A stretch of DNA of 61,481 nucleotides, filler included, from Dimargaris cristalligena (Eukaryota): NCBI GenBank assembly GCA_003614675.1. It is 8 parts of 8 records of this genome, joined end to end, with 100 filler letters (N's around TTAATTAATTAA, not from the genome) between each part and the next. Parts side by side here need not be neighbours in the genome. Positions count along the whole stretch, not along the records: positions 46,275 to 53,830 come from ML003404.1; 7 more parts are not named here. One strand, given 5' to 3'. Positions 15,356 through 60,183 of this stretch are shown here, in pieces. The translations under genes were made by a program, and so were the position numbers. Position 1 is the stretch's first letter, and each line of letters begins with the position of its first letter. Under the pieces are notes generated by a model, which did not search any database, was not told the DNA's origin, and worked only from the letters and a program-made list of their open reading frames with translations.

Positions 15356-15455
15356 NNNNNNNNNNNNNNNNNNNNNNNNNNNNNNNNNNNNNNNNNNNNT
15401 TAATTAATTAANNNNNNNNNNNNNNNNNNNNNNNNNNNNNNNNNNNNNNNNNNNN
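15356..15455. other. Artificial contig spacer
   Basis: N44-TTAATTAATTAA-N44. Confidence 0.98.
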
Positions 15456-15555
15456 TTTGATGAGGAAAATACTACTGGTTGAAAATAAACATCCCACCGA
15501 TTTTCCCATATACATATCGGTTAAAACCTTGTACAACTAAGCTGCACTTCACCCA
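15456..15555. mobile_element. MITE copy (subfamily B), left end cut by the contig start
   Basis: TTTGATGAGG..TACTACTGGTTGAAAATAAACATCCCACC..CACTTCACCCA followed by TA; matches 28283-28425. Confidence 0.75.
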
Positions 15556-18358: not shown

Positions 18359-18678
18359 CCTCTAGCCTGCTGGAATCCTATCTCATGTGGCTCCTTCGGA
18401 GTTCCATTGGATTCAAACCATTTGGCCGGGGAAATATTACTCAATATTGGGGGGTCGTGAGACTATCCTGAACACGGCATACCCTCCTCCCACTTCCTAC
18501 CAATCCTAACTTCATTGTCGTGCTTAATAATCAAGGAGATTAAAAGCCAGCTGGGTCTTGGGAACTAGGTGCCATCGTCGCCTAGTTCTGTCAACAAGGT
18601 ACGGAAATTCCACCTTGCTAAAGGTCCACCTTCCTTCAGCTATCCCCACTACCTGATTCGTCTATTCTACATACCATA

Positions 18679-18816
18679 TGGGAGAAGTTCATCCAAGCTG
18701 TATAACGAAAAATCCATTAGATGGGGCCAATATTACTGGTTAAAATGGCTACTCCCGCATACTATCCCATACACAAATCATGTAAAACTATATATAGCTG
18801 GCTTGAATTTCACCCA
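18679..18816. mobile_element. MITE (138 bp, ~27-bp imperfect TIRs, TA target-site duplication)
   Basis: TA|TGGGAGAAGTTCATCCAAGCTGTATAA ... TATATAGCTGGCTTGAATTTCACCCA|TA. It is absent from the paralogous position at ~22308. Confidence 0.88.
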
Positions 18817-20214: not shown

Positions 20215-22960
20215 TGGACCATTTGTACACTTTATCTTGCCACGTCTCGAGGGCCTATTTTGGTCAAACCTGGTTACATTAGACATGCTGTAATGTTGGA
20301 AGGTGCCGAAATTCCTAGACAAGGTGTGGTAGACCAAAACACCAGACCCACTACCATGTGGATACTGGCTGGTCCAACTGTCGTGAATATTTTTTGTCTA
20401 AATAACCCTGCCTCCCATAACAATGGGCCAGGGCCTGTGAAATATCCAAATGACCGGTCTGCATCCCTTGGCTTGAATTGGTTTGAATTGGAAGACACGC
20501 ACTAAACCAATACTGGCGTGTTTCTTTGACCCACAGGATATATTTGTATCAGGTGCGCGGCTAAACAAAACCCTCGAGAGTAGCACTGTTTGCACAACAT
20601 TATTAATTTTACCCACCAGTACTTATTTGGAAGTATCCCATAAGTAACATCGCTGGGTGAAAGAAATACATCAATGTCCAGTAGGATGCATTAGTTACTG
20701 AAATCCTGATGCAATTGAAGGTATTCTAACACACGCAGTAAACTATCGGTATTTATGGGAGTGAAGCGAAGGGACTTCTGAAAAATATCGTGAAAAATCT
20801 ACTTGATCAAAAATTACACATCGACTGACAGATGACCTTGGTCATCGTACGTATAAACTCCCGCGTAGGTATCCCTAACAAAGACATATCTGCGAGATTC
20901 CCAAATAGGCTAAACCCATTGTTGGTTTTTCTATTTTAATATATTAAACCTAGCGACCACAACAAGGTCCCTTTGGAAGGAACCTACATACAACTTTCAG
21001 TCTTCATCGGAAACATAGTGACACTACAAAAAAGGGCATTCCAAAATGCCTCTTGACTAGCCACCGTATGTGGATATAAATAAGGATCCTTATCCAGCTG
21101 GCCCTGCTCCAGTGTACATTGTGCTAAGCTCATTCTCCCCCACACCATTTTCTCGAATTCCGACGCCTTAACCTCTCGAATCCTGCGATTTCAGTCATTT
21201 TATATTGTCCCCATACCGTCGGATCCGGATTTTATAGCAATAGGTTCATCGTTGATATTCCAGTGACGTCCCACTTGTGTTTAAGTATAGCATTTAGGCC
21301 ACTTTCAGTATAAGCAACTGCCATCTCGATTCAAATGAGTGAGCCACAGAGAAATTTACCCCGCCCATTGAAGCCCGCAGGTAGCACAGGTGAGTTAGAA
21401 GCCCTTATGAATACGTGCCTTATTTCAGACCACCATTTTCATTGATGCACTATTCGTACTACAATCATTGCCACCTCATAGTACGACTATTATTAATTTC
21501 ACCATATGTATTGATACGTGCATGATTCTCCTGATATTTATTTTCTACCATGGTTTCCAATGAATACACAAAGAAGGACCCATTGCAAAGGACCAAGTGA
21601 CTCACGGCCTACGAAATCAGCGGTTTTTTAGGGCCGCCAATATCGAGGTTTGCTATAATATCACCAAGGATAACGTAGACTACTTCAATTGCCCATCTGG
21701 TACAGTCGGCCTTCTTAATGTATCGGCTGTAAATTCTCCCAATATTTGCCAGAGCTATTTCATCTGTCTTCAGTTGAACAAGAGTAAAGTATGGGAGATG
21801 AGTGGTGTCGATTTTTCTGCGGAGCTCCGAATCTATCTGGATCACATACGCCCAGAATATCATAGGGCAGACTTATTCGTTGTTCCCCCAAACATGGCCG
21901 CGGACTTCGGGAACTTTATGAGCCCGCAACACCTCCGGCCCTTGTTGGAGGAATTCGGTATCATACCAGGTTGCTTAAAGAGGGTCGATTATATTTTGAG
22001 TTGGACCTGGAAAAACCCCTAGCCCGGCGAGATCATTTCCCATGGCTCCTTCGTCGATTCGTTGGACTCGCGTTTTTTACTTGGGAAACATCACTCTTCA
22101 TTGGAAGGGGGGGGTCTTGAAACCATCCCGAATATGGCATACCCCCCACTCCATACCTCCCTTAACCATGTTGTCGCTCTTAATAACCAATGGGATTAAA
22201 AGCAGACTGGGCCTTAAGGACTAGGTACCATCTTCGTCTGGTATCAACGAGGCGCGGGAATTCTACCTTGCTGAAGGACCTCATTCCTTCATTTATTCTA
22301 TATACCGTATTCATTATACCTATCTAGTTTTATACAGGTTTTAATATATCTTTTGAATAGCGTCTTAGAGCATGTTCTGCGCTGGTTTGACGCCTTTATC
22401 ATTAGCCTGCTTGGCTATATTAAGCCGAGCCAACTCCTATAATCAATTATTTAGTTAATTAGTGTCCATTCTATACACCCTCTTGTTGTTAACTCGTCCT
22501 ATCAATATATCTCTTAATTATTATCAATAAAGCTCCCTTCGCATCAATTACTTGTGTGTTCATTCCTTTTGCTCGAACTAGGCGTAAGCCTTTAATTACT
22601 ACCTGGGGTATCACCTACCACAATTAGAACTAAGTATAATATTACTAGAATTACCCACACTACCATCAGCAGCGTTCCTTTACCACTGCTGTCCCCCAAT
22701 TGTTGCTATAATATTTTAAGCGGTGGTTAATTCCTTATTCACAATTGTAGAGGTAACTGAATAATAATTCTTTACGACAATGACATCTTCTTTAAAATAA
22801 TAACATGAATAAATTTGAAAATGGCCATACATAGTCAAATCGATAATAAAATAACTGTTACCAATTGCTTCCATTGCAGCAATAGAAAATTGAAAATTCC
22901 AAGGATACATCAACCAAACTGTATTAAAGGGAGAAAAATAGCTAGAGAATGATAGGTGTA
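20215..22960 (+). repeat. Tandem segmental duplication, copy 2
   Basis: Collinear with 16575-19465 at an offset of ~3.5-3.65 kb; lacks the MITE. Confidence 0.85.
21335..22022 (+). CDS. Orphan ~167-aa protein, paralogue 2; exons 21335-21389 and 21574-22022
   Basis: 55-nt exon ending ACAG|GTGAGT; AAG acceptor; shares VGLLNV, IC.Y.I.L, DF..L.I.LD and ADLF with paralogue 1. Confidence 0.65.
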
Positions 22961-23073
22961 CTGCCATAGGCTCAGACGAATTTCCTTTCCCATGAGACAA
23001 CCTAGGTGTATTCCCTCGCCACATAACGACTGCACATTCAATATCCACAGTTACACTCTTTGAGCGAGTATTT

Positions 23074-23581: not shown

Positions 23582-25838
23582 ATGTCGCAGACCCAAAGCC
23601 CCCAGCCCATCTTCGACCTGCCCACCCTGACCCGTGAGCTTGAGCTCGACGACCGGGTTAAAGTTGCCGGAGTTGATATCGACGGTATTCTGCGGGGCAA
23701 AGTGATACTCAAGTCTAAGTTCTTCTCGAGTCTCAAAAGCGGTTTTGGTAAGTCTCTTCGCATTTTCGTCCGCGTTCGGCCCATTCCGTTTCCCCATTTC
23801 CCTAAATTTTGCCCCTTCCCCCACGCCCTAAGCATATTTCGAGTAGCAGCTGCCTACGCGGGGCGAGCTTATGGCGGGGGAAATGTAGTAGAGACCCGCC
23901 TTTTATGGGAGATGGCAGTGCCTTGTTCGTATTGGTATATCTATTGTTCTCCGATGCCCTTCGGTCCGCCGCTAGACCAATCAATGGACATTGAAGGGGT
24001 TACAGGGTGTAGTGGTAGAGATCACTTTCCAAATCCTCGTCATCAATATATTGCTGAACGGACATTGGTGATTAATCAGTCAATGGTACATCCCTTCTTG
24101 CCATTGGCACCAGTCGATTATTTGGCCTGGCCTTGTTTTACCAGTCACTAACGGTAATTCTGACCATTACATCTTCCCCGCCCCTTAATTCACCGGGCCC
24201 CTGTCTTCCCCTCATGTTACTCGTAACGGCCCTGACCCTGTGGTCTCTTACTAGGTTTTTGCAGCGTCATTTTCGGCTGGGATATGCACGACAAGGCGTA
24301 CACCACCCCAACCACCATTTCGAATGATGCCAATGGGTTCAGTGACATCATCGCCAAAATCGATCTGTCCACCTACCGTCGTCTCCCATTGGAGGACAAC
24401 CTCCCGTTCTTCCTATTGCGCTTCTACGACCGTAACCACCATCCACTAGCCGCCTGCCCGCGTTCCCTGTTGGCCCGGATCGTCGGGGAGTACGAAGCCC
24501 TGGGTTTAGAACCCCTCTGTGGAGCGGAGTTCGAGTTCTTTAACTACAAAGAGACTCCCGCTTCGTTGGAGACGAAGCAGGGGGTCGGATTGTCCCCCAT
24601 TACGCCCGGCATGTTCGGCTATTCGCTGCTTCGGCCTGCATTGGAGAAGGATTTCTTTACGGACATCTTCACCCAGTGCAGAGAGATTCGGGTGCCCATC
24701 GAGGGTCTACACACCGAGACAGGTGGGTCCTAAAGTGACATATATAGAGTACTCCATTGCTTAGCCGAACCATGTGTGGGCTAATTACGGTTGAAACGGC
24801 CTTGAAAAGCTCTCATCACGGGCATCTAACCGTATTCACATATGCCTTTATATATATATATATTGCATTATCACCAATAATCTAAACAACCCCCTAGGTC
24901 CCGGCGTCTATGAAGCCGCCCTCAAATACGCACCGGCACTTGAAATGGCCGACCGAGCGGTTTTATTCAAAACCATCGTCAAACAGGTGGGACTCAAACA
25001 CGGCATCATCGCCTCCTTTATGGCTAAGCCCGACCAAACGCTCCCAGGCTGCTCCGGCCATTTGCACTTCTCCATTCGCGATTCACAGAAAAACAACCTA
25101 TTCTTCGATCCATCCGCGGGTCCTTCCGAGGCGACTGACCCATACCGCATGCGTGGAATGAGCAGCACCATGGCCAGCTTCCTCACTGGACTTCTAGTCG
25201 GCCTCCCTAGTGTTTTGGCCCTCCTGGCCCCCACGGTCAATAGCTACAAGCGTCTAGTCGAGAACTACTGGGCCCCGGTGTATATTAACTGGGGCAAGGA
25301 ATGCCGCACTGCGTCCATTCGGGCCATCGGAGCCGACCTCCCCCCCGCCGATCAATGGGCCGCCATGGCGGACCAGGACGACGAACGGGCTCGACTCTTA
25401 GAAGAGGGCGCCTCTACCCGTCTGGAAATGCGGGTATCGGGCTCGGATATCAATACCCACCTGGCCATTGCGGCCTGTCTCGCGTGTGGGCTATGGGGAA
25501 TCAAAAACCAGCTCGACCGACTGCCGGTCCCGGCGCTGGGAACCCTGGACCCGGCTCAGGGCCGCATTCCCACCGTCATTCGTATGTCGACGGCCTCCGA
25601 TGCCGAGGGTAAAGTGGAGGTAACGGGTGAGGAGAACCTTGCCTATCCGCGGGGCCTCAAACTCAGTCGCACCCTCCAGGAGGCGGTCCGGGTTATGCAG
25701 GAGCCCCAGTCGATCGCCCGGCAAGTGCTCGGAGACGAATTTGTAGATCACTACGCTCTAACCCGGGAGCACGAATGGCAGGCCTGGGAGAATGCCGTGA
25801 CGAACTGGGAGGTCAAGCGGTATCTGGAGATCCTGTAA
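23582..25838 (+). CDS. Type I glutamine synthetase-like / gamma-glutamyl-amine ligase, paralogue 1 (~524 aa); exons 23582-23747, 24255-24722, 24898-25838
   Basis: DIDGILRGK, GFGFCSVIFGWD, GAEFEFF, HTETGPGVYE, GCSGHLHFS, NSYKRL, TRLEMR; introns 23748-24254 and 24723-24897 join in frame. Confidence 0.9.
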
Positions 25839-28712: not shown

Positions 28713-29313
28713 GCAAATGGGGAGGAACATAGCGGGTTGGCCGAACAAACCGCCCAATGCCGTGTCCTCACCATTCTTCCGCAAAACTATCCTTAGCCAA
28801 CCCCTCCTCTTGTTCGGCGACCAGATGAATCATCCATGCCATGCTTAGTGGTGCATTGTAGCATGGTTCACGGTCGAGTTACTTGGCCATGCATGTTGAG
28901 GGGAAATGGCAGTGTAAACGGCCCGCCGTGGAATGTGCGGTCTTCATTGAGATCTGATAATGGGTATTCGCTATATTAATAACGAGAACGGCTTACGCCC
29001 ATACTACAGAGCAGCCAAACTACTCTCTCCTACCCCGATAATAGAGACTGCGCATGCCCTCCCCCCTGGCATGACCTGCTCCCGACTAAGCTTTGCCTAT
29101 ATATAGGCGGCGGACTGTCACCCGTCTATATTCAGCTCATATAACTCACTTATTTAATCTTGCCGTGGTTCCGCTCTGATTTCAACTTTGCATCAACCCT
29201 CTTCGGCCTGGCTACATCACCTACTAGCTGACTCGGTTTCTGCCCTCAGGCCTTTCTTCCCTACCGCTTCCGTCAACCGACCACCCTCCCGGCAACATTT
29301 CGTGCCTGCCACT

Positions 29314-30787
29314 ATGCTTACATCCCCCGTAACCCCCTCTGCCCCTACCCACGCCCCGGGCTCCGCTCCGACCTCCTCGGCCCACCCTACGCTGCCGAGC
29401 GCGGGGCTCCCCACTGGCCAGGGGGTGTACAGTTGCTCGGGCCCCGAACTCACGTTTGACCAGATGCATGACCTCCTCCGCCATGACGCCCGCGTCAAGG
29501 TCGCCATGATCGATATTGACGGTGTGTTCCGGTGCAAAACATTCCTCAAGGAAAAGGTCCTTTCATCATTCGAAGACGGATTCGACTTTATCCCCATCCT
29601 GTTCGGCTGGGACGTCATGGACATGCCCTACACCGTGCCGACCCCCTTTGGCAATGCCGAGGAAGGCTTCGGTGACGTATGGGCCCGGTTGGATACCCGC
29701 TCGTTCCGTCGGCTACCGCTCGAAGACAATATGCCGTTTTTCTTACTACGTATCGCCGACCGGGCCGGGCGCTCCATTCCCGTGTGCCCGCGAACGGTGT
29801 TGGCGAAAGTCATGCGCGAGTATGCCGAATTAGGCCTGGAGCCCCTCTGCGGAATTGAGTTGGAGTATTTTAATTTCCGTGAAACCCCCCAATCCTTGGC
29901 CGAGAAGGAGGGGAGTAAGCTGGAGCACATCACCCCGGGGAAGTTCTGCTTCTCGGTAATGCGGCCGTTTGCGGAAAAGGCGTACTTCAACGATATTACG
30001 GAGAAATGCGACCAAATGGGAATCCCCATTGAGGCCATGCACACCGAACTAGGTAGGTCGAGTACTGTTCTAATGACATCGACTCCATGTACTAGTATTT
30101 CTTTCGTGCAGCATAGTTGGGCTAAGCACTTAGTGACATGCCCCTGGAATATCAATGTGGGGAACCTTTTAACCCTCTAGACTGATCCTGGTCTAACCCT
30201 AGACCAACTAACCTGCACTAATGTTCTTCCTCCAACCTCGAACCCACCATCGAATAGGGCCCGGTGTTTATGAGTGCGCTCTACAGTACACCAACGCCAT
30301 GGACCTCGCGGACCGCGCCGCCATGTTTAAAATGACCGTCAAGCAGGTTGCTCTCACCCATGGGATGATCGCGTCCTTTATGGCCAAGCCCGTCCCCAAT
30401 ATTCCCGGCTGCTCGGGCCACATGCACATGTCAATTCGCCACCTTGCGACGGGCGCCAACGCCTTTTTTGATCCCCTCGCCGGGCCCACCCCCGAGGACC
30501 CTTACCGCGCCATAGGTATGAGTGATACCATGTCCGCCTTCATTACCGGCCTCCTCGTCGGCTTACCCAGTATCTTGGCCATTTTGGCTCCCACGGTCAA
30601 CAGCTACAAACGTCTGGTGGAAAACTATTGGGCCCCAGTGTTTGTCAGTTGGGCTAACCAACAGCGGGCGGCCGCGGTTCGGGTGATTATCCCCATGCGC
30701 CCCCGGGCCGAGAATACCGCGGACCCGTCCAGTGCAACCGCTACGCGCGGGGCCCCGTCGGAGGCGGAACAATCCGCGGCGATGGCA
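29314..30787 (+). CDS. GS-like gamma-glutamyl ligase, paralogue 2 (3' truncated); exons 29314-30052 and 30258->30787
   Basis: DIDGVFRCK, LFGWD, GIELEYF, HTELGPGVYE, GCSGHMHMS, NSYKRLVENYWAP; the intron sits at the same position as intron 2 of paralogue 1. Confidence 0.85.
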
Positions 30788-30887
30788 NNNNNNNNNNNNN
30801 NNNNNNNNNNNNNNNNNNNNNNNNNNNNNNNTTAATTAATTAANNNNNNNNNNNNNNNNNNNNNNNNNNNNNNNNNNNNNNNNNNNN
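30788..30887. other. Artificial contig spacer
   Basis: N44-TTAATTAATTAA-N44. Confidence 0.98.
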
Positions 30888-33909: not shown

Positions 33910-36900
33910 TTAAACATGGGATAGTTCAAGAAGACATTCTTTCCATTGCAAAGTAAACCCGCTAATCGTATTCGCCCGGAACTGTTTTGAGTTGAAATTG
34001 GTAATGAGCTCCAATCCTCGTGTGGTGTTCCAAGCCGCAAAGTCAAGCACAAACGGGTATTTGTTTTCGCTCTTCGCTGTTCTCAAGTAGTTGAGCATCG
34101 CAGGTCGTTCAATTAGGAGAGTATTCGTGTCGGATGAATCACCGACGGCCATGTCGTCCAAATACGTGAAACCGAATTGGGGCTGTGCATTAAACTGCTG
34201 CTTAAGTTCGATTTGGTTCTCAGAAAAGGAGTGCAAATTCTTGGTTACGGTATATAGGAAACCGTTATCTACACCCGTGCTTAGTATGGCTTGAACAGCA
34301 CGTAAGGTGCCCATTAAGTCGCCATTCGAAGCACAATGGAAAACCAGGGGGAATTGGCTGGCGAAGAATCCTACTGTCCGAGAGACGTCGCATTGGCTAT
34401 GGGGATCCTTGCGCCCGTGGCCTAAATACCCCATATCCATCTGGTAAAGCCCGAAATAGCGGCTATAGGCACATACTAGGGTCGTCAAGATGAGTTCAAT
34501 TGGTGTGGCCCCAAGTTGTTTAGCTACGGTCGTCATGAGGTGGAGAGTAGCGCTGGGGTTGACGAGGTTCACTACACGTTCGCGGGTTTCGTTAGTAATG
34601 GGGGTGTCATCCACAGGGAGTTCTATTGGTAGTGGAACAGCGAATGTTGGCAGGTCAATACTACACGGGTCAATGGACTGGGCCAGGGACCAAAGGTGAT
34701 CGGCCCACAATTTGTAAGAAAGGGTTAGAGGTTCGAGAGTCTGGCCAGTCAAGAAAGCCGAAAGGTCTTCCCGAACAATCTGGACGGAGAGATAATCAAA
34801 AACCAGGTGATGGACGGATATGTAGATGTATTGAACTCCGTTGATGTCGAATACTCGAATCTGAGAGATCGGACCAACCTCGAAATTAATCTGGTGGTTA
34901 ATTTGGTTGAGCTGGTCCAGGGCATCGTGGATATCATCCATTTGATGGTATTCAAAACAGGTGGATGAAGGGTCATCCAAATCGGTATATTTAATCACTG
35001 TTTTCCCATCGACGGGTTGGAAGCGGGCCCGCAGCATGTCATGCCGCTGAACCACTTTATTCCAGGCAGCTTGCCACTGTTGAGCAGTAAATCGCGAGCG
35101 GGATTCAAATAGAGTGGGTAGCGGGAAGAAGTGGGGGTCAGCTAGTTGAAGGGCAAACAGCTCCAGCTGGGGCGGGGTAAGTCGGGCAACCCTTGATTCC
35201 AAATCGGCAGGACCATGGCTATCCTCATTAAACACTTCGATAGAACCGGGCAGGGTCGAAATTAGTTCAGAAATATAGGTGATCGTGTTGGACCGGTTAA
35301 TATCCACCAGTGCCAGTTGCAGGTTCTGGCGGCGACAGCGGGATACTAATTGAATGGCTGAGAGGGAGTTGCCGCCGAGCTGGAAAAAGGTGGCTGATGG
35401 TTCGATACCACTCGGATTAATTCGGAGGGTTTCGGCAACTAGCCCAATGAGCCGGGCTTCGGTTGGGCTGACTTGTACGGCCTCGGGGTTGCTACTGCTG
35501 GCGGTAAAATTATGTCTGGGCAGAGCCTTGCGATCCACTTTACCCACCCGGGTCAGTGGCAATTGGGTAAGTTCCACCAGAACGGAGGGCACCATGTAGT
35601 AAGGAAGTTGGGTTCGCAGAGAGTCCATGATAGCGGCCACCTGGCCAGAAGGGGGAACCACGTAGCCAATTAAGTGTTTCTCGTCCTGGACCACAACACA
35701 AGCCTGGTCCACAGCGGAGTGAAGTTCCAGAGCGCTCTCAATCTCCCCCAGTTCAATCCGGAATCCACGCAACTTAACCTGGTTATCGATCCGGCCGAGA
35801 CATTCAATCTGGCCATTGGGTAACCAGCGGGCCAGGTCTCCTGACTGGTAGATGCGCTCACCGGTAAACGGACTCAAAATAAATTTCTCCTGGGTAAGTT
35901 CAGGGCGATTGAGATAGCCACGCGCCACACCACGACCGCCCAAGTAGAGCTGGCCTATAGCGCCAACAGGGACCAGATGCAAATGGGCATCGAGGATGAT
36001 ACCGGTGGCGTTGGGTAGCGGAGAGCCGATGGGGATTACCGAGTCAGTGGAGTGGAGCCGAGTCCAGTGGGATCCACACGCCACCTCGGTGGGACCGTAC
36101 CAATTGATGAGATCAACTGAGTCGGCCCATTTATTTACTATCCCCTGGTTAGCCGGTTCACCAGTGATAATGACTTGCCGTAGGTTGGGAAAACTAGTCG
36201 GATCGAAGCTGGCAAGTAGGGAGGGAGTGCAGCAGGCTCGCGTAGACTGGACAAGGGCGTCTTCGTACTCCCCTTGGGTTACCAGAAGGGTACCACCGAA
36301 GGACAGAGTAGTCCATATCTCGGACAGGGATACGTCAAAGGTGGGGGTAACGAGGGTAGGGGTAATGGCGCCCGGAGCCATCTTAGTAATACTGCCCATA
36401 CCCTGCCAGTGGTTGGCTAAAGCGTGGTGTTCATGCATGACACCTTTGGGGGTACCAGTCGAACCCGAGGTGTAAATAATGGCAGCCAAATGGGTGGGCT
36501 CTATAGTTGGTGATGGATATAAACCAACCGGGCCATCAGCAAAAAGTGCAGCCCTATTAATTGGTATCGTAGAGATGGCTAAGCCGAGGGAGTCTAATGC
36601 CAAAAGGTAGGAGGGTTTACCCATAACGGCAATTGCTTGCGTATCTTCCAATATCAACTGGTGCCGCTCAAGGGGATAGTCAGGGGCCAGGACTACAAAT
36701 GCACATCCGGTCTTCCAAATAGCCAGCTGTCCTATAATGAGTTCCAGGCAGTTGTCGGCGACCAGTGCCACTATCCGGTCGGAACCACACGGTGTCTGCT
36801 GGGCTAGTGAGTGGGCCAGTCGATTGGCAGCCATATCCAGCTCGGTATAGGTGTATTGTTGGTTGTTATGAATGAGGGCCATGTGGCGGGGCACTTTCTC

Positions 36901-38485
36901 ACACTGTTGTTGAAATAGATTGTGAGCCAGGGCACGGGGGCTATTATGCGAGTTTGTGGCCCAACCTTCTAGCAGCTGTGTACGTTCGGGTAAAGTGAGA
37001 ATCGGTATATCTGTAAGTGGGCTACTGGAGTCCGCGGTAAGCAGGGACGTCAAAGCGGTCATGTAATGATCCGCAAATGAGTTGATGAATTCGGGGCCAA
37101 AATCAAGCGACCGGTAAGTGACTCGCAATTGAAGCAGATCTCCTTGGGTATGGGCAATAACTGCTAGAGGGAGGTCCGTGGGGTCCCAGAAGCTATCAAG
37201 TTCCATTTGGAATGGCAGGTCCGAATTGGCAGGAGCCTCGGGGTAGTTCTCTAGTACTAGAAGGGCGTTGAATAACGGGCGTTCCTGGTCCAGGCCACTC
37301 CAGCGGTGAATATCCGTTAGCCGGCAGTGTTCGAAGCCGTGGGCCTGGGTGCTCGTCGCATATACCGACTGTAAAGTATCCCGGACCGATGGATTGCTGC
37401 TGAGTGCCACTCGGCAGGGGATGGTATTGATGCACGGTCCGATGATATTCTCGACACCTTCCACGGGGACGTTTCGGCCCGAGACCACCACGCCAAATAT
37501 TACATCAGTCGATCCGGTATAACGGTAAAGTACCACCGCCATCGCTACTCGAAGGAGAGTCGAGAGAGTAACCCCCTGGTCGCTGATAAGCCTATTGATC
37601 GGGGCCACAATCGGTCCAGACCGTTCAACGGTTCCGTAAAATGCCGCGTTGCTAGATTGCGAATCGGGGATAGAGACTAAATGATGCGCTTGTATCAATA
37701 GGCTCGGTTCCTCAACTCCAGAGAACTGATGCGTCCAGAATTGTTTAGCCTCACTACTATCTTGGTCCCAAATATGGTCAACGAAATCACGGTAGCTCAC
37801 CGCCCTGGGTAACGGGTCATTTAAATAATTACGGCAGACGCCTTGTAGTAGCAACCCGATGGACCAGCCGTCAACTAAGGCGTGGTGGACTGAGACCAGT
37901 AATTTAAACGATTCAGGGGCCGTCCGGAAAAGGCCAAACCGGATCCAGGGTCGGTCGGGGGTGAACCCAGTAGTCCGCTCTTGTTGGAAGAATTGGTCAC
38001 ACATAGTATCAACATGGTCCTTTTCCCAGCTGCGAATGTGCCAATGGGCATTAAAATTCTTAGACACAACCTGCAGGTTCTTATCAGCGTCACACCCACT
38101 AGCGGTCAGGAAGCGCGTACGAAGGATTGGGTGGTCATGGGCGGCTTGGTCCCACGCCCAATAAAAGCGGCCGACATCTAGATGACCATTGACATTGAAT
38201 CCCAGTTGGACCATGTAAGCGGCCGGGTCCTGGAGGGTGGCAAACAGTAGACCTTCCTGGACTGGTAGGCAGGGGTAGATATCTTCGATGCCAGCCAGAG
38301 TTAGGTCCAGGGTGGGTAGGTCGTCCTGGACCAACTTGTACAAATCGGAGTCGGTTAGTCTGGCAGAGGAAAAGTCGCTAGTTGTTACAATCGAGGGCGC
38401 AGGAATGGTCTTGCATTCGAGAATGAGTTCCTCAAGAGAAGTACGCCACTGGTCGACCACCTTCTGAATTGTACTCGGGCGGTGC
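33910..38485 (-). CDS. Non-ribosomal peptide synthetase, C-terminal part: (E tail)-C-A-T-E/C(terminal); 5' truncated
   Basis: C: HHALVDG. A: YTSGSTGTPKG, FDVS, YGPTE, SGDLARW, QVKLRGFRIELGEIE, GKVDRK. T: FFQLGGNSL. Terminal domain: HHLVFDY, LGHGR, SRTVGFF. No introns over 4.5 kb. Confidence 0.95.
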
Positions 38486-38585
38486 NNNNNNNNNNNNNNN
38501 NNNNNNNNNNNNNNNNNNNNNNNNNNNNNTTAATTAATTAANNNNNNNNNNNNNNNNNNNNNNNNNNNNNNNNNNNNNNNNNNNN
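38486..38585. other. Artificial contig spacer
   Basis: N44-TTAATTAATTAA-N44. Confidence 0.98.
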
Positions 38586-40475
38586 AATGCGTCGATCCCA
38601 GCTGTGGGCGGTCTGGTAGAAGAGCCGTTCAATGACGGTTTCGGCGTAGCGCTCCTTAAAGATATCCTGACCGTCCAAGAACTCCAATTCCGGGTGATTA
38701 TCAATCACGTCCTCCAGAATCACCAAAAAATCATCGGGCTCCAGCCACGACCGGTCCTCCCTCCGCAGGAGATTAAACACCAGGGCGTCCTCGTCGGGAC
38801 TCGAGGTACGAAGGGGTTGCCAGAACCGGGCGAACTGGCGGTGAAGGTTGACCATGGGTTTTTGGCGATGGCTGAGTTGGGACAGGTCATGGTGGGGATT
38901 GGCATCCATGACGGAGGCCTGGGCGCCAAAAACCCGCTGGAACAGGGCCTTGTTAGTGAAGCGGGGCAGACCGCAAATTTCCGTCACCCGCAGGAAATCC
39001 TCGGAAGTAATGCCGAAGTCGTCGGTAAGAGCATATTTGACCTGTTGGACCTGACGGGCCGCCAATACCTGGAGATCAGGGCTCGCGGCCGGTCGACCGC
39101 CCGGGAAATAAAATGGGGGAATCTGACTAGAGGCAGGGGCCGCTGTGTCCTCCCGACTGATGGTGGTGCCCTTCAATGAAGAGGAGGGGGTCGATGCCAA
39201 GAGATCAGCTGAGGCGAAGCGAGGTAGTTTGGTGTGGCGAGGGGTACACGGGGTCCGCGGGCCGCGGGTATCCCGGGTAATACGGGGAGCGGTGGGGGAT
39301 AATTCACCCAGGTCATCGAATTTGCTTTTGGTGGTTTCCCGCACGGGGCTGGACGGTAGCTTTTTCGAGGCATCAAAGAGAGAACGGCAAACGGGACTCT
39401 GCTTGAACTCGGTTTCGGGAGCGGAAGTCAATGGGTGGAGGGGGCTGGACAGTGGCACCGGCTCCTGATCGGTTAGTAATTCATTGAAGTTGCGCTCGCG
39501 ACCGAAACCAGCCGAGACACGAGCGGCAGTGGGGGAATGTTCCGGATCTTGGCCGAGGCCCTGGTAGAGATGGGTGGGCAGGGCCAGGGTGTCCGGATTG
39601 GTGGTAGGGCTCACCCGCGATAGAGGCGAAGAGTATTGGTGGAAGCGATGGATATCATGCTTATCTGTTACGAGGACACATTTAATAGTTAGATGCAGTC
39701 AAGTTGGAAAGCGAGATAGTTAGACGGCCGCTGGTTAATTGGGGGTGGTGCAGTGATGTACCCGTCGGCTCCGAAAGCGAATTCGAGGCCATTCTACCTG
39801 AGCCACAATAAATATATACTATTGCGGACAGTATCCGTGACTCTACGCCAAAATAGGTCATTTACATCCCGGCTAGTCCACTGGGCCGGCGGGATATAAT
39901 TTGACATTAGAGGGCAATGTGCCTATCCATATTCACCAGTGGTATACCGCAATGGTACCCAGGCCCAAAGCAAGGTCCGATCTGGGATAACAAAAGCATG
40001 ACATATTAAAAAAGCCTGGGGCCTACTAACCTGTGGTGATGTGTTTTAATTTTTTGGAACTCAGCACGGGGCTCAACGGCGGGATGGACTTGGGACTAAG
40101 GAGCAGTCGCTGTGGGCTCCGGATAGCGGCCAACGCCGGGCTCTGACGCCGGGCGAAGGGGGAAAATACGGAGAAGGCGGGTTCCTTCGGTGTCCGGGGT
40201 TCCTTGTCCATCGGGAGGGCACCACTGCCTCCTTCTCCGGCCGTATGGGACAGGTCAGCCATGATCCGCTTGTTGCGCACGGCATCGGCCGAGGCGGTGA
40301 ATAGACGCTTCGAGCGTGGTGAAGGGGAGTGGGGGGACCATTTGGGGTTGATGCAAAGTTCATCGGCCTTGATGGGCGAAGCGAACAGGGAGACGGCGGA
40401 CTTGCTGGGGGTGCTGGGCAAACCGACCTTGTTGGGGGTGCGTTCGGGATTGGGGGGATGGCTGGCGGTGGCCAT
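38586..40475 (-). CDS. PP2A regulatory subunit B'' (PR72/PPP2R3-like), 3' truncated; exons 40475-40031 and 39664->38586
   Basis: IPPFYFPGG and ILEDVIDNHPELEFL...FKERYAETVIERLFY match B'' subunits; long S/T-P-rich N-terminus; phase-1 intron GTTAGT...TAACAG. Confidence 0.82.
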
Positions 40476-47156: not shown

Positions 47157-48888
47157 ATGAAAATCACTATCACAATTTTAGCCCTTGCAACTAGCGTATT
47201 TTTGGCCACGGGCGCCACAATTGCCTCACCCACCGAGGTGGGCATTCCGTCAAAAGAAGTGGCTACTGAAGAAGGGTTTGTTACCGAACCAGAAACTTTG
47301 GAAGCACCTCCGTACGAAACGGAGAATATATCCGTAGATATGAAATGGGCTGATTTGAGAAAACACCTCCGTGAGTCGGGGGGCATCGTCAGCCAAAATG
47401 CGCGTGAGGCTTGGAAACTTAAGGTAAGTGTGTCACTATATACACCATCGCCTATCATGACTCCTCCCCCCCTTCTAAAAATATATTAGAGCAAGCGTCG
47501 AGGGTATACTAAGAATAGGAGGGATCTCAATTGAGACTGGTGGCGACATCATCGCTGTCATTTAGCTTAGACGTTATCTTAACTCGGCTAATTTACCCAA
47601 TCCTTTTTATTGCTGCCATCTCCACCGATTATAGGTATCCGCAAACTACCCCTTCTACAGTATTAACGGACCGTTTGAAGGTACCAACGATATGTACTTC
47701 AACCAGGGTACTTGGAACACTATTGCCCCCACTTGGTTTAGCTTGGCCGGCCTGGAATCCTTGGACACCCAGCTTATGCAGATACAAATTGCGTTGGCCA
47801 GATGGTACAACGAAGGTCTCCAGAGTCAAGCTGCGGGGAACTACGTCATTAGTCGGGAACTGTTCGACCGTATCCGGAAATACGATGATTTTCTCCAACT
47901 TAACGGTGACAGTCCTTTCTTGACGGACAACCGCCGGGTGGCTATTAATATGGCCCGGTTGAGCTTGGCCGAACTCCAAGTGGAGTTTCCACTGGTCGCG
48001 GCGAGTAGTCCCGAGTATCTCGCGGCGCTCTGGAAAACCGCTGTCTATGGCGAAGTGGTAACGTTCGACCACCCCGTTAAGATGGGGGATGGCTCGGGTG
48101 GCCATTTGGCGCTGGGCATGGCGGCCGATTACCTTTCCTTGAACCGGTTGCTTCCCTTTACGGCCAGTCGGATCATTATAGCGGGTCTATGGCACCTTTA
48201 CCAGCAACCAGCCCCGTACCGGTATACCGCTATTCTGGCCTTTTTCCAAAGTGCGACCAAGTATCTGGTTCGGACCCTGCCCCTATTAAAAACCGGCGAC
48301 GCTATCGCGGCCCTGCGCAATACGGTTTATATTGTGCTGACGCTGGCTACCATCCACCGGGACTCGATGATGGTCAACGGAATTCGCCGATTATTGGGAA
48401 CAGTCATGTTTGCCACGAGACAAGGTCGGGTGCGGTTTATGACCCGGGAGTCGTTCCTGGCTACCCTTAAAAAACGGCGCATGAAGCGGGCCGTGGCGCA
48501 GCTGCCTATCGTGTGGCCTGAGAGTACCGTCGATACAAACTCCGGAGAGGAGGGAGCTCAGCCCGACCAACCACTGTCCTGGGCCACTGACTTTGTGTTC
48601 CACGTCATCTTTCGACTGACGAACGACGGCGACTTGATTCAGGCCGTTCCGTCCCACTGGATTAGCACCCCGGGATTGATTGAGCGTGCGGAGCATACCT
48701 TTAGTACCGGTGGGGAGTTTACCCCTTACCAATTACAGGACGCCTTAGCCGCCCGTAAGCAAAGAATGGCCTCGAATCCGACCGAAACCGGTACGGGCAA
48801 ACCAACCGGTATGGACCCCGGCCTGGATAAATTGAAAACTAAACTCAGAGTGGGCAACGTGAAACGTAGCGGTATCGTCGGTCATTAA
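47157..48888 (+). CDS. Secreted orphan protein (~506 aa); exons 47157-47423 and 47635-48888
   Basis: Signal peptide MKITITILALATSVFLATGATIA|SP; phase-0 intron AAG|GTAAGT...TATAG joins the 398-aa ORF in frame; helical body with no recognisable domain. Confidence 0.75.
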
Positions 48889-49648: not shown

Positions 49649-51277
49649 CTAACAGCTGTCACTCATCAGATTCACCAAGTCGGTGTCATCTACTTCCGTT
49701 TTGGTTTGGGCCAGGTTCTTGAATTTAGCAAACAGCCGTTTCGACTTCTCACTAGGGATATCGGTGTAACCCAGCAAATTGAGGCGGGACAAGAAAGCGG
49801 ACCGGCCGCTCTGGTTGGACAAGATCAGAGCGTCACTGGTGGCGCCCACCTCCGCGGGGTTAAGGTATTCGTAGGTGGTCCGGTTCTTGAGCATACCGTC
49901 CTGGTGAATCCCGGAAGTATGCCGAAACACATTGCGCCCCACAATGGGTTTGTTAGCCGCCAAGGCTAGGCCACTGAGGGCGGACACCATTTGGCAGACC
50001 CGGGTAAAATGAGAGGTATTCAGTTGGTGGGTGGCATTATAATGCGCTGCATGGGTGGTTAGGCACATGGCCACTTCCTCTAGGGGGGAATTGCCCGCTC
50101 GTTCGCCGAGACCGGCCATGGTTCCGTCCACCAAAGTGGCCCCCGCTTCGATACCGGCCAAGGCGTTGGCGACGCCGAGTCCCAAGTCATTGTGGGTGTG
50201 GACCGCCCAGATAGCCTAGGGAAAGTAGTCCAAAGGGTGAAAAAAAATGGGTCGCCATCGCCATCGTAGAGAGTGGCAGCAAAAGGTATCCGAACATTAA
50301 AAAATAAAATGGGGTTAGAAATTGACTAGACAGGCCCTGGAGGTGGGGTCAGTAGCAGGGACCAAATAGCATCGGAAAGGTTGTTCCAGCATAGCCCAGG
50401 CGGAAATATACTTTTAATTAGGGGACTTCTAAAGCTAGGTGCTGTAGCTTTAACTACAAATACCTATTAATTTTTAATAAAGCGAACCACCCCTCCCTCC
50501 CTCCCTCCCTCCCTCTAATGACAATACGCGGCAGATGAAGGATTTATGCAACCTGTCCACCCCGCCTATCATATCGGCATCCTGCAAGGGTGATTCATTA
50601 TTAACATTTGTAGTCCCTTTGGGGAGTGAGAAAATTACCTTTTCGGAACCCGGCGTATTCTCGATACAGTATTTGACGATACGATGAAACTCGACGGGGA
50701 TGCAGCTTCCCACGGTATCCGTCAAAGCCACCGCGTGCGCCCCCTCTGCAATGGCCACCCCGAACACTTCGCAGAGGAAATCGTAGGAGGACCGACAGCC
50801 GTCTTCGGCCCCAAAGGCCACCCACGGGGTCAGTGACCGCGCTAGGCGGACACTCTCCCGCACGCGCTGGAGACACTCCGTCCGGGACATGCGGAGTTTG
50901 TGTTCCAAGTGCAGATCAGAAGTAGCGATAAAGAGGTTGATTTGGCAACGCGGGGCGTCCCGGATGGCCTCGTAAGTGCGCCGAATATCCGCTTCCAAAG
51001 TCCGACTTAGCGCCGAAATGATGGGGGGTTCACCCAGGTGTTCGCGATGGGTCATGTGGTGACCCACTTCCCGGGCAATCCGCTGGCAGGTGCTAAAGTT
51101 CTGCTCCGATGAGACCGGGAAGCCCGTCTCGATCATAGCAACCCCCAGTTCCGCCAGCGCCCGCGCGATGGTTACCTTGGCGTCGGGCGTGAAACTGACC
51201 CCAGGGGTCTGCGCGCCGTCACGCAGCGTGGTGTCAGCAAATATAATACGTTTGGGCGCCCCGTTGGTGGCAGACAT
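49649..51277 (-). CDS. leuA: 2-isopropylmalate synthase-like (LeuA/DRE-TIM) enzyme lacking the regulatory domain (~401 aa); exons 51277-50639 and 50215-49649
   Basis: DTTLRDG.Q.PG, IETGFP, FIATSDLH, DTVG, HTHNDLG, GLGERAGN, NKPIVG, SGIHQDG; phase-0 intron GTAATT...CCTAG. Confidence 0.85.
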
Positions 51278-55430: not shown

Positions 55431-55926
55431 TCTTTCCCTTATCAGACATATCTACATTTCATTTTTTCGTTTATTATTTAAAATTTCAACTATTTAGATT
55501 ACATCGTTTCTTGCTTACTTTTAAATTTTCATCCATATAGTTTATCTTTTTTTGTCTATGTGTATAGTCTTGTAAAGCCTTTCGGACAACTCTAGTATAA
55601 TGGAGTTGTCATTTCGAGAGGTAGTGCTATTGGGAATAGGCATCCATTAACGATAATGACCGTTGTTGTGGGTCGCATTGCTGTGCCCTTCTTGTGTGTA
55701 AGCCAGGCGCCTTTCCCAAGGCGCATCGAATCTGTTGGCATTGGCTCTGCACCAGCGCCCCGTTTCTTTTAGGCCCAAGCCGACGCACCCCTACTGATAT
55801 ACCGCTGCCTAGGCCTGTGTCTTTTCCCCCCTCTTGTTTTTTTTTCATATTTCTTTCTGTTCAATACCCTTTAGGTTAGGTTTCCGTTTTTGATTCTTCC
55901 CGAGTCGCTGCGTTCCCCCTTCTGCC

Positions 55927-57700
55927 ATGCTGCTTTCCTTTAAGCGGCCTAGTTGGCCAGTAGGCCGATCCCTGAATCTTCGGATTGGTCCGGCCCAATG
56001 GTTAACTCAATCGGCCTTCCGAATTTATCGGCCATATTCGACTATTGGTGTTTCTGGACCGAAGTCCCGCCCCACTACCTCCCTTCGTGGCTCAGCGGCG
56101 GCCTCCACGGTGGTTTGCCACGCCCCGCTGGAGGTACCGGCCACTCCCACTCCCGGACCAGCCCAAGTTTCCCAGGCTGTACCTATTTACCCCAGCCGGC
56201 TCCATCCCTCCACCATTCAATCGTATGAAGCGGCTTTCAAGTTACTTAACCGCGGCTTGAGTTTAGAAGATGTGACCGCAAAGTCGATTGAATACCATTT
56301 TCCGGGAGCGATGGATGGGAAGCCATTTGATATGCGTCGGTTCCTAGGTACCTTTCGCTCGCGCAATAACAAGGTGTCGTGGTTTATTGCGAATTCTTCA
56401 GGTAAAATTCGGGCGTAGTGATACCTACTAGATCTATAGATAACAAGATGGATCAACAGAGTGGTGCACGGTTACTTGGCGGTTTTAGGCAATGTTCTAT
56501 CGCCTAAAATGACATTTAGCCAATAACACCAATGTCCATTTTCCACTTATGTTTTCAAATATCTGTTTTATAGGAAGTTCGACCAGTCGACTGGGCTAGT
56601 TTCGCCGTCGGCGTAAGCAACTCTAAGGGCTAAACCAACTTGACCTGGGAGGTGGGGGAATCTCATAAAAACAAATAATTAATCTGACTGTATCGGCCTG
56701 ATCCTCACCCCTTTCTATTACAGAAATTACCGAGCAAAACCTTGAACAATTTATAGAATGGGAACGGGCGGCCCCCCTTCCCCGTACCACAAAAACCCGC
56801 TGGACTCCCGAGGAGGATGTCCGCTTAATCCAAGCGGTCGAGAAATTCGGGGGTAAGAACTGGAGCGCCGTCGCCGCCCAGGTTGGAACCCGAAACAGGG
56901 TGTGCTGTAACCAACGCTCCCGGAAAATCATGCGGGACCCTACTTCCGTGACCACCGTGACTCCCGAACTGCTGGCCGATGTTGACCAACTTCTGCGCCG
57001 CTATAACCACGACTGGTCCAAGGTGCTCCCCCACTACCCCCACTTTAAGCCGTATCAGATCCGAAGTCGGTATGCCCTGTGGCTGAACCGGACCTCCCAA
57101 TTTTCGCGTATTTGGGATACCGTGGAGTTAGAGCGGCTCCGGACCGCGGTGGCCCAGCTCGGCCCATTCCGATGGTTCGATGTAGCCCAGGTGGTCCAAA
57201 CCAAATCCTTTACCCAGTGCAGCCTACAGTGGAAGAAATTTACCCTCTTGGCGACACGGAAAGCTACGACCCTCGAGGAACGGGTCCGTATTCTATTTTT
57301 CCTGGCCGTCTTCCATCCCGATCACATTCACCCCATTGTGCCCCAATGGCTCACCTGGCTCCCCGCCTCGTTACAGGACCGGGGACTTCAGCCGGGGGTC
57401 CATATCAACTGGCTGGTCGCTGCCCAGTGGTTACTGCTAACCCGTACTTCGGGCCAATGTAAAGATATTTGGCATAGTATGCGAAAACAACTCCGATTAA
57501 CCTGCCAGCAGGGGCCGTTGGATCAAAAGGTCCTACTAGACCTGTACCCCCAGTGCGACACGAACCTAAAACGGCGCCACATGGCGACAAAACTGCGCAT
57601 ATCCACTCGGGACTTCACCCGGCAGTTTAACTATGCCCGTATGGCGGTTCTATTTAAACAGCTGGCCGATAACCCACCATCATTGCCTTTATATATGTAA
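55927..57700 (+). CDS. Myb/SANT-repeat protein with a mitochondrial-presequence-like N-terminus; simplest model exons 55927-56401 and 56724-57700
   Basis: RWTPEEDVRLIQAVEKFGGKNWSAVAAQVGTRN and WDTVELERLRTAVAQLGPFRWFDVAQVVQTKS..QC..QW repeats. The internal splice pattern is uncertain; a mini-exon at 56574-56612 is possible. Confidence 0.75.
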
Positions 57701-58633
57701 TTTCCCTCTAACTAGAGTAAGGGGATCTGTATCGTATTAGTAATCCCATGATCAGGCTCCGATTCTCCAGTATCGCATCACTTCTGCCCTTGTTCTTTCT
57801 AAAATGGGAAATTGGGGCGATTCACGGTCCACTTATTGACTAATCCATGTACGAATTAAGAGTGTTAGTCGCCTTTGTAAAGCATGTAACAAGCCGGTGG
57901 ATATGAAACACTAGTCTAATTGTTGACTTTGACTGTATGACTGGCAATATTTATCGTATGAGGCACCGGTGTCCCTCGTTTAATGCACCATTAATCATGT
58001 GGTACCGTCAAAGGTTTGTTTAGAAAGGCGAACGTTTTCTCTTTCTATTGATAGATATGCTAGTAATAAATATCCGCTGAGTTGAAACCATCGATAATAA
58101 ATAGAGTTAATAGAGGGATGATGGTCATAAATAATCATTAATTGCAGCTCAATCCAAATGATGGGTGTTGAAGGAGGAATAGGAAGGTTATATTTACCCG
58201 TATTATTGGTATTAGGCTGAGAATCAACGGGGAAATCATCTGGAGCAGAATCGCTCTATATCGGGATCGGCGGGGAGCTAAACATTTCTGGGTGTTGTGT
58301 GGGGAGTGGGGCGATTGGCCCAATTTGTAAAGGTGGCGGTTTAGGTGATTCATCTATAAAAAAAGACAGAAGGAGCCACCACCTTACTAGCGGTGGTGGG
58401 ATATATATATGTATATATATGCTAGTAATAGCTAGTAATCACTCGACCACTTTGTTTGACTAATCTACTACAGGGTTTATTGGCGACTGAGTAGCCCTCC
58501 TACCACCCTTATATACCACTTCTGCATTGACGACCACTTTGCTTGTTTACCTTACTGCTGCCGAACTCCCCCTGTTATATTCCCTATACCCATCCATCAT
58601 TCGTTGATTTACCAGCCCAGCTCTTCATTCAAC

Positions 58634-60183
58634 ATGAGTTCCTTTGGCCAGCTCTTTCGCGTCACCACCTTCGGCGAATCTCACTGCAAAGCCGTTGGCT
58701 GTGTCATTGATGGCTGCCCCCCGGGAATGCAACTTACCGAGACCGACATTCAGCCTCAACTTACTCGGCGTCGGCCTGGACAGAGTAATCTGACCACTCC
58801 CGTAAGTTTAATCTACCCTCGCTACTATCCTTGCCTACATCCAGTAACGAGCAAGGTTCTCTTTGTTTTCGTTAGAGATGTTAATGTAGAGGCTGACCCT
58901 TGAATAGCTTACACCATATACCCCACCAACTGAGCAGTAGCAAATTCCCCGACTGCACCGGCCTAGGTAGACTGCCTGAAAGGGGCCAGGGCTTAGAACC
59001 GTATTTGTAGTTAACTATTTTTGGGAAAGCGCTAACTGTGGCATATCAATCATCATGTCCGACATTTGCCCTGCGAACCAACACCACCGATCCCTAATTA
59101 CACATACACTAACTCCTCGACCAATATGCAATTTATTACCTTTGTATTAAAATCGTGTAGCGTGACGAGAAGGACCAGGTCGTGATTCAATCCGGTACCG
59201 AATTTGGTGTAACCCTGGGAACCCCGATCGGCTTGTTCGTTCCCAACCAGGACCAGCGCCCCCACGACTATTCCGAGACCGATTTTTTCCCGCGCCCCAG
59301 TCATGCCGATTGGACCTACCTCCAAAAGTACGGAGTCAAGGCCAGCAGTGGTGGAGGTCGGTCATCGGCCCGGGAAACCATCGGCCGGGTTGCCGCGGGC
59401 GCCATCGCCGAGAAATACCTGCACACCGCCTACGGCGTGGAGATTGTGGCGTTCGTCAGTTCCGTGGGTCCCGTGGAGATGCCCTTCATCCAGCAGATGC
59501 GGTCGGGTAAAACGGACCCCGGCTTCTTCACCCTCCTAAACGAGGTGACGCGGCCGCAGGTCGATGCCGACGCTGTCCGTTGCCCGGACGCCAGCGCGTC
59601 CCCGGCCATGTGCCAGGAAATCCTGCGGGCCAAAGAGGAATCCGATTCCATCGGCGGGACCGTAACCTGTGTCATCCGCAAAGTCCCCGCCGGCCTAGGC
59701 GAGCCCTGTTTCGATAAACTGGAAGCCAAGTTGGCCCACGCCATGCTGTCCATCCCCGCCACCAAGGGTTTTGAAATTGGGAGCGGGTTCCCCGGTACCG
59801 CCATGAACGGCAGTGTGCACAATGACGCCTTTGTCAGCCGTACCGATGAACAGGGCCAAACTACCCTGGGTACTACCTCCAACTACTCTGGGGGTATCCA
59901 AGGCGGTATCAGTAACGGCGAAAACATCTATTTCCGCGTCGCTTTTAAACCCCCCGCCACCATCAGTCAGGCTCAGAATACCGCTAAATATAACGGTGAG
60001 GCCGGCGTACTGGCCGCCCGGGGTCGCCACGACCCCTGTGTCGTGGCCCGGGCCGTTCCCATCGTCGAAAGTATGGCCGCTTTGGTGGTGATGGATGCCG
60101 TGCTGATTCAACACTCCCGTACCATGTCGACTAGCCTTCTGCCCGTGGCGGAGAAGAAGAACCCGCTCATGTATGGCATTTAG
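58634..60183 (+). CDS. ARO2: Chorismate synthase (~396 aa); exons 58634-58801 and 59161-60183
   Basis: [59 protein letters not shown]. Confidence 0.97.

Follow-up and report, generated by a model that had tools for sequence, protein, structure and literature searches.

The gene at 49649..51277 on the minus strand of a 61,481-nucleotide stretch of Dimargaris cristalligena DNA (assembly GCA_003614675.1; eight parts joined end to end, here called the window) encodes P0001, a shortened relative of the 2-isopropylmalate synthase (IPMS) LeuA. P0001 is, on balance, probably a neofunctionalised LeuA descendant, a feedback-free enzyme condensing acetyl-CoA with 2-oxo acids larger than 2-oxoisovalerate. 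An earlier sequence-only reading had placed it among the chain-elongation-type synthases freed from feedback, and this assignment is supported at the level of sequence by the retained catalytic set, the lost regulatory domain and the replaced substrate pocket. That the enzyme is active, accepts a larger substrate and serves specialised metabolism is predicted on these grounds. The kind is a known one, an IPMS turned chain-elongation synthase, and the new element would be an independent fungal member.

The gene comprises two exons and one GT-AG intron, as follows:
50639..51277, minus strand: exon 1, codons 1-213, with the ATG at 51277-51275; encodes the N-terminal two thirds of the HMGL-like TIM barrel, including the DTTLRDGAQ metal and substrate motif.
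50216..50638, minus strand: intron of 423 nt, GT..AG, phase 0, between Lys213 and Ala214, with a GC content of 0.45.
49649..50215, minus strand: exon 2, codons 214-401 and the stop codon at 49651-49649; encodes the remaining barrel and the HCS_D2 domain.

Exon 2 contributes the metal ligands His219 and His221 and, within the HCS_D2 post-barrel domain, the catalytic His317 and Tyr328. The LeuA models of NCBIfam are matched by exon 1 from model position 4 to 197-198 and by exon 2 from 199-200, so that nothing is lost at the splice junction. The translation spliced from the window is letter-for-letter the deposited D. cristalligena protein P0001, 401 residues long and filed under two accessions of this species, one per accession series. 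Pfam identified two domains only, HMGL-like at 11-290 and HCS_D2 at 304-385; the C-terminus lies 16 residues past HCS_D2. LeuA_dimer (PF08502) was not found by Pfam in P0001, and a tblastn search with three full-length fungal LeuAs (E up to 10) yielded no match to the regulatory domain in any part of the 61-kb window. Splicing, Pfam and tblastn together confirm the product of about 401 residues without a leucine-binding domain that had been read from the sequence, and the five motifs quoted with it (DTTLRDGAQ, FGAEDGCRS, ALTDTVG, HTSGIH and LSNQSG) are all present. The AlphaFold model of P0001, built from a 49-row alignment, has a predicted local distance difference test score (pLDDT) of 90.1 and a predicted TM-score (pTM) of 0.84. 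A (CCCT)n / (GGGA)n microsatellite, about six units long, lies in the intron at 50490-50515.

The active-site set given in PMC11532901 for the methylthioalkylmalate synthases (MAM) of Brassicaceae is Arg89, Asp90, Gln93, Glu227, Thr257, His288, His290, His388 and Tyr399. Through alignment with the Brassica MAM structure 6E1J, the equivalents in P0001 are Arg19, Asp20, Gln23, Glu158, Thr188, His219, His221, His317 and Tyr328, and all nine are kept in nine of nine members of the clade of truncated Dimargaritales proteins, described below, to which P0001 belongs. P0001 thus has the HMGL-like barrel and post-barrel domain with complete catalytic set that define a type-1 IPMS. The pocket was compared in an alignment with 234 other type-1 LeuA relatives, gathered by similarity searches and not a random sample, and the Escherichia coli LeuA numbering was taken from alignment with the sequence of the annotated K-12 record. 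The replaced positions are:
50720..50938, minus strand: replaced-pocket stretch, with five pocket codons and the catalytic Glu158 among them.
50938-50936, minus strand: Asn114, equivalent to E. coli LeuA H97; His in 232 of the 234 relatives.
50818-50816, minus strand: Ala154, equivalent to E137; Glu in 230 of 234.
50812-50810, minus strand: Gly156, equivalent to S139; Ser in 232 of 234.
50728-50726, minus strand: Ala184, equivalent to N167; Asn in all 234.
50722-50720, minus strand: Thr186, equivalent to P169; Pro in 228 of 234.

The 2-oxoisovalerate pocket of IPMS is formed by Leu, His, Glu, Ser, Asn and Pro, and P0001 keeps the Leu only. At the specificity columns of PMC12961565 (Table 1), IPMS has Leu/Glu/Ser/Asn/Glu, homocitrate synthase (HCS) His/Arg/Thr/Ser/His and HphA Ala/Asp/Ala/Met/Ser; P0001 has Leu/Ala/Gly/Ala/Asp, which corresponds to none of the three, the polar and charged side chains having been lost. 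The alteration at the MAM-diagnostic positions proposed in the sequence-only reading holds when mapped through both PDB 6E1J and E. coli LeuA: P0001 combines the loss of the regulatory domain with the S216G change and with changes at the N250 and P252 positions, the Pro being replaced by Thr and not by Gly. The divergence extends beyond the pocket. Near-invariant columns, at least 97% conserved among the 234 relatives, number 112; canonical fungal LeuAs have the usual residue at all of them, the nine clade members at 85-88. Eighteen of these columns are altered in at least seven of the nine members, including the equivalents of E. coli H97, S139, N167 and P169 as well as Phe14, Tyr191, Ser217, Gln241 and Asn247 near the active site.

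Truncation without such changes is also seen. Two Lichtheimia species (L. hyalospora and L. ornata, P0004 and P0005) have a 410-residue LeuA copy that ends at the same point as P0001 yet retains an entirely canonical pocket and 112 of the 112 near-invariant columns. It is nested within the Mucorales LeuAs, a placement that makes its truncation an independent event, and the protein probably functions as an ordinary IPMS isozyme freed from feedback. The copy serves as a control for the curated models. P0001 reached 451.3 with its best NCBIfam IPMS model against a cut-off of 532, and 427.1 with TIGR00973 against 598.7, below both; the cut-off of 532 (NF002086) was exceeded by the truncated Lichtheimia P0004 (624) and by P0164 (695), the canonical LeuA of D. 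cristalligena. Since the equally truncated Lichtheimia copy with its canonical pocket passes, the failure of P0001 is due to divergence of the core and not to length. P0001 and a member of the second subfamily of its clade fall below all curated NCBIfam cut-offs for IPMS, HCS and citramalate synthase.

These results bear on whether P0001 is a leucine-insensitive IPMS isozyme still making 2-isopropylmalate, for an unregulated supply of leucine or isovaleryl units as with truncated IPMS copies elsewhere. Membership in the LeuA family, a truncation exactly at the regulatory domain, the retained Leu90 and the Lichtheimia precedent, by which truncation alone does occur in zygomycetes, all agree with such an isozyme. 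It is nonetheless unlikely, as all four E. coli LeuA engineering positions and Glu154 are replaced, 24-27 of the 112 near-invariant columns are changed in the clade against none in the Lichtheimia copy, and P0001 stays under the IPMS cut-off that this copy clears.

A stand-in for the HCS of the lysine pathway, or for citramalate synthase, is highly improbable. The Pfam label HCS_D2 on the post-barrel domain would suggest it, although canonical LeuAs receive the same label. P0001 scores 285 and 249 with the HCS models (cut-offs 462.9 and 413.55) and 201 with the citramalate synthase model (cut-off 450), far under in each case; the HCS signature of PMC12961565 Table 1 differs from P0001 at every column; and pyruvate, by the reasoning followed here, would require a narrowed pocket whereas this one is widened. 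The sequence matches of P0001 among solved structures were Brassica MAM 6E1J (337 bits), Neisseria IPMS (283), Schizosaccharomyces pombe HCS (121) and Mycobacterium tuberculosis LeuA (65). The best fold match of the P0001 model among solved structures was also MAM 6E1J (TM 0.90/0.88), a top rank that partly reflects the absence of any solved plant or fungal type-1 IPMS.

P0001 is a paralogue and not the sole IPMS of its genome, as the sequence-only reading had it: the search for a separate full-length enzyme identified P0164 in D. cristalligena, with 561 residues, LeuA_dimer at 389-540 and a fully canonical pocket. Full-length LeuAs with the regulatory domain were identified also in another Dimargaris (P0165) and in Tieghemiomyces (P0170). 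The three were retrieved by a profile of 19 Kickxellales LeuAs; a query with the regulatory domain of Coemansia LeuA alone reached 35 Kickxellales proteins and was too insensitive with regard to Dimargaris.

The truncated proteins comprise three copies in D. cristalligena (P0001-P0003, 399-401 residues, 76-82% mutual identity) and 411-residue proteins of Tieghemiomyces found in the first similarity searches. An exhaustive HMMER search (E up to 0.001) gave 16,347 proteins, and its best 150 added a Tieghemiomyces pair of 409 and 414 residues (56-57% identity to P0001) and a Dimargaris verticillata-type pair of 411 residues (62-63% identity to the Tieghemiomyces 411-residue protein). In a 49-row maximum-likelihood tree, which omits P0121, P0005 and ten bacterial or unnamed rows of the first tree, eight truncated proteins form one clade with a support of 100 in the Shimodaira-Hasegawa-like approximate likelihood ratio test (SH-aLRT). 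Subfamily A (SH-aLRT 99) unites the three D. cristalligena copies, P0001-P0003, with the Tieghemiomyces pair of 409 and 414 residues, and subfamily B has an SH-aLRT of 100. Each subfamily contains both genera, and therefore the truncation and the A/B duplication predate the split of Dimargaris and Tieghemiomyces; subfamily A then radiated in D. cristalligena. Members outside Dimargaritales were identified neither in the similarity searches, nor in the Kickxellales profile search, nor in the best 150 of the 16,347 HMMER matches, and no published account of the clade was found in a limited literature search on Dimargaris isopropylmalate enzymes.

The two subfamilies differ in their pockets. The one of subfamily B is constant (Phe, Met/Leu, Trp, Gly, Val, Ala) across two genera with 62-63% overall identity, whereas that of subfamily A differs among paralogues (Ala/Val/Gln; Gly/Ala; Ala/Val/Leu/Phe; Thr/Gly), the common features being Asp243, HTSGIH and LS-x-x-SG. 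A constant pocket in B and a variable one in A make up the pattern expected for selected specificities. Another pocket variant is that of the LeuA-like plant protein P0119 (Acer saccharum, 595 residues), in which the His position is Asn, the Pro position is Thr and the catalytic 'IHQ.G' stretch is missing from the aligned sequence; it could be a paralogue with a specialised role or the product of an erroneous gene model.

With regard to origin, the clade very probably arose by duplication of the fungus's own LeuA within the lineage. Zygomycetes and chytrids use a plant/bacterial-type LeuA as working leucine enzyme, as described by Larson and Idnurm (PMC2904702), and because non-Dikarya fungi natively carry this type the contrast with yeast Leu4 is no sign of transfer. 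The competing origin, a horizontal transfer from bacteria with the intron gained afterwards, was part of the sequence-only reading and is not borne out; it is very unlikely given the native LeuA type reported in PMC2904702, the best full-length match and the native base composition. In the HMMER full-length ranking (best 150 of 16,347) the Dimargaritales canonical cluster reached 414 bits, other fungi 376 and the best bacterial cluster 343. The GC content at third codon positions is 0.69-0.71 in the P0001 gene, compared with 0.72 in the chorismate synthase gene and 0.70 in the bZIP gene of the window. In the clade, the loop that follows 'REV-G' is of fungal length and carries an 'RE..IG..P' pattern; Anaerolineae-like bacterial LeuAs have a similar one, shorter by one residue. 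P0001 and P0164 have local strings in common, such as GSEKAIW at the intron site, and the columns exclusive to the clade and a single candidate parent are three for the Dimargaritales canonical LeuA and 0-1 for the others, numbers too small to carry weight.

In both unconstrained trees the clade falls on the zygomycete side (SH-aLRT 95 for the 28-row group and 97 for the opposite 21-row group), adjoining Ramicandelaber with weak support and with very long branches. The approximately unbiased (AU) test did not reject a union with the bacterial, plant and unnamed rows (p 0.233, log-likelihood lower by 8.07), which leaves room for transfer, as does the similar identity of P0001 to fungal (~50%) and bacterial (45-47%) LeuAs; the union with the Dimargaritales canonical LeuAs is likewise unrejected (p 0.351). 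The trees are long-branched and not decisive on origin. In each of the two trees the only plant row belongs to the opposite part, and the likeness to MAM is therefore convergent, as had been proposed: the clade groups with zygomycete LeuAs, apart from this single plant row.

The mechanism proposed for P0001 starts from the complete Claisen machinery, formed by the metal site, the Arg/Gln/Glu/Thr set and the His-Tyr pair of the post-barrel domain; with this machinery kept, condensation of acetyl-CoA with a 2-oxo acid to a 2-alkylmalate would still be expected. Two changes would have redirected it. The first is the loss of the C-terminal leucine-binding domain, so that leucine would be unable to switch the enzyme off. 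The second is the replacement of residues in the wall of the side-chain pocket by smaller or apolar ones, a rebuilt pocket in which 2-oxoisovalerate would fit poorly or not at all and larger hydrophobic 2-oxo acids would be accommodated. The 2-alkylmalate would then pass through an isomerase, a dehydrogenase and a transaminase, with a net gain of one CH2 on the amino-acid skeleton. In plants, the steps from IPMS to MAM given in PMC8490860 are L143I, H167L, S216G, N250G and P252G with loss of the regulatory domain, S216G and P252G coming first; these two changes together with the domain loss turn a plant IPMS towards MAM (PMC8490860, PMC6603273), and the loss of the domain in MAM is reported also in PMC6603273 and PMC8468904. 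In feedback-resistant E. coli LeuA, according to PMC3370425, S139G followed by N167A, H97A and P169A admits ever longer 2-keto acids, and the wild-type LeuBCD performs the downstream steps.

The product could have an outlet in nonribosomal peptide synthetases (NRPSs). D. cristalligena has 27 NRPS genes and the Dimargaritales are far richer in them than other Kickxellomycotina, as reported in PMC6784888 and PMC9866270, and the window contains one NRPS. A broader and more tentative reading, somewhat short of an even chance, is that the LeuA duplicates of Dimargaritales constitute a family of feedback-free homologating synthases, with two ancient subfamilies and the three-copy D. cristalligena radiation, feeding non-proteinogenic homo-amino acids, possibly of several chain lengths, to NRPSs. 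If so, it would be the first of its kind among early-diverging fungi. The abundance of NRPSs and the single-module NRPS of the window fit the supply idea without showing it and are circumstantial, and the supply of homo-amino acids to the many NRPSs of the lineage is speculative. The other features of the window are:
33910..38529, minus strand: single-module NRPS (C-A-T-C), a 1539-residue open frame about 11 kb from the P0001 gene along the window; a link between the two is not shown.
24236-25838 and 29158-30835, plus strand: a tandem pair of glutamine-synthetase-like genes (Gln-synt_C) beyond the NRPS, each interrupted by an intron.
47635-48888, plus strand: 417-residue open frame, convergent with the P0001 gene and ending 760 bp from its stop.
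55894-57700: Myb-domain gene, between the chorismate synthase and P0001 genes.
58460-60183, plus strand: chorismate synthase in two exons, 7 kb upstream of the P0001 gene along the window, with no sign of a functional link.

On the same strand, an EF-hand_13 (PP2A B''-like) frame upstream of the NRPS (38538-39698) ends only a few bases from where the NRPS frame begins. The glutamine-synthetase-like pair has 64% identity over the aligned 146 residues, the closest solved structures being type-I glutamine synthetases, and could represent glutamate-amine ligases of a cluster or plain duplicates. The 417-residue frame had no Pfam match and no usable ESM Atlas match. The stretch from 8000 to 23000, between the bZIP gene and the glutamine-synthetase-like genes, is AT-rich (GC 0.35-0.43), its scanned frames have no Pfam match, and it may be repeat or transposon debris.

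Several observations weigh against P0001 as an active chain-elongating synthase that supplies an NRPS. About 11 kb of frames without Pfam domains separate the NRPS from the P0001 gene, and genes for an isomerase, a dehydrogenase or an aminotransferase were not found in the window. Within the protein, the IPMS-type Leu90 is retained, and changes are present at two further sites:
51212..51214, minus strand: codon 22, GCG (Ala), one base from GAG; Glu in 228 of the 234 relatives and in the eight other clade members.
49811..49918, minus strand: subfamily-A changes HTSGIH and LSNQSG, beside catalytic and possibly CoA-facing motifs.

At the first site a near-invariant Glu is replaced by Ala22 between the metal ligand Asp20 and Gln23, which positions acetyl-CoA. 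The GAQ motif pointed out in the sequence-only reading is thus present but is not a trait of the clade, as the eight other members keep the Glu; Ala22 is found in P0001 alone among clade members and in none of the 234 relatives. At the second site, Thr313 (49918-49916) stands in HTSGIH where 231 of the 234 relatives have Glu, and codons 346-348 of LSNQSG (49819-49811) replace the canonical GKH, with Gly346 and Lys347 each conserved in 233 of 234. These subfamily-A changes beside the catalytic His and in GKHSG could alter or weaken the handling of CoA; they might also indicate a different acyl-CoA donor.

Ala22, the changes at the second site and the very long branches would also agree with a copy, or a whole subfamily, that is catalytically crippled, either a decaying duplicate or a non-enzymatic protein. 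This is quite unlikely in view of the nine catalytic residues kept in all nine members, the intact frame with canonical splice sites and an identical sequence under two accessions, the age of the clade, older than the Dimargaris/Tieghemiomyces split in both subfamilies, and the confident predicted fold. P0001 as a functional 2-oxo-acid condensing enzyme of altered specificity is preferred.

If this is true, the same few pocket residues were reached three times, in Brassicaceae MAM, in engineered E. coli LeuA and in mycoparasitic fungi, and in all three an IPMS became a chain-elongating synthase with leucine feedback removed. Mustard plants rebuilt their IPMS for glucosinolates; here a mould-parasitic fungus would have rebuilt extra copies beside its normal leucine enzyme, probably to make precursors of unusual amino acids. 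Homologated amino acids would be predicted in the uncharacterised peptides of Dimargaritales, a handle for natural-product chemists on a lineage whose clusters, according to PMC9866270, match nothing known. The three D. cristalligena copies would be natural pocket variants for '+1' pathway engineering, and the deposited names '2-isopropylmalate synthase' and 'pyruvate carboxyltransferase' would be misleading for metabolic reconstruction.

A member of the same family is the canonical zygomycete LeuA (Phycomyces leuA type, represented by P0164), probably the parent gene, with ~50% identity over the catalytic part; it differs in having LeuA_dimer, all 112 conserved columns and an IPMS score above the cut-off. 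The HphA enzymes of cyanobacteria and the HtyA type of the echinocandin cluster are LeuA/HCS relatives that condense acetyl-CoA with large 2-oxo acids and feed NRPSs with homophenylalanine or homotyrosine, and they resemble P0001 in that the Ser position is occupied by a small residue and the Asn position by one other than Asn (PMC12961565, PMC7778625). The Ala/Asp/Ala/Met/Ser pocket signature of HphA is different from that of P0001, and both HphA and HtyA are clustered with their own isomerase, dehydrogenase and transaminase, unlike P0001 in its window.

Brassicaceae MAM (BjuMAM1-A, 6E1J) is also derived from IPMS, is without the leucine-binding domain and has the same catalytic residues. Gly225 of MAM corresponds to Gly156 of P0001 (the IPMS Ser216 position) and Ala253 to Ala184 (the Asn250 position), and the His167 position is replaced in both, by Val182 in MAM and by Asn114 in P0001. 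MAM keeps Glu223, Pro255, HESGIH, LGK and the Gln, Glu and Asn of the QVEVTIN strand, all changed in P0001, and many more near-invariant columns are altered in the Dimargaritales clade. MAM descends from plant IPMS whereas the clade descends from fungal LeuA, outside the Brassicaceae descent that belongs to the definition of MAM. In the engineered E. coli LeuA of PMC3370425 (S139G, N167A, H97A, P169A and the feedback-resistant G462D) the same four pocket columns are altered as in P0001, two of them identically (S139G as Gly156 and N167A as Ala184), and the P169A change has its counterpart in subfamily B. Both lack the feedback, the engineered enzyme through a point mutation and P0001 through deletion of the domain; P0001 goes further in also changing the equivalents of Glu137, of Tyr at position 191 and of others.

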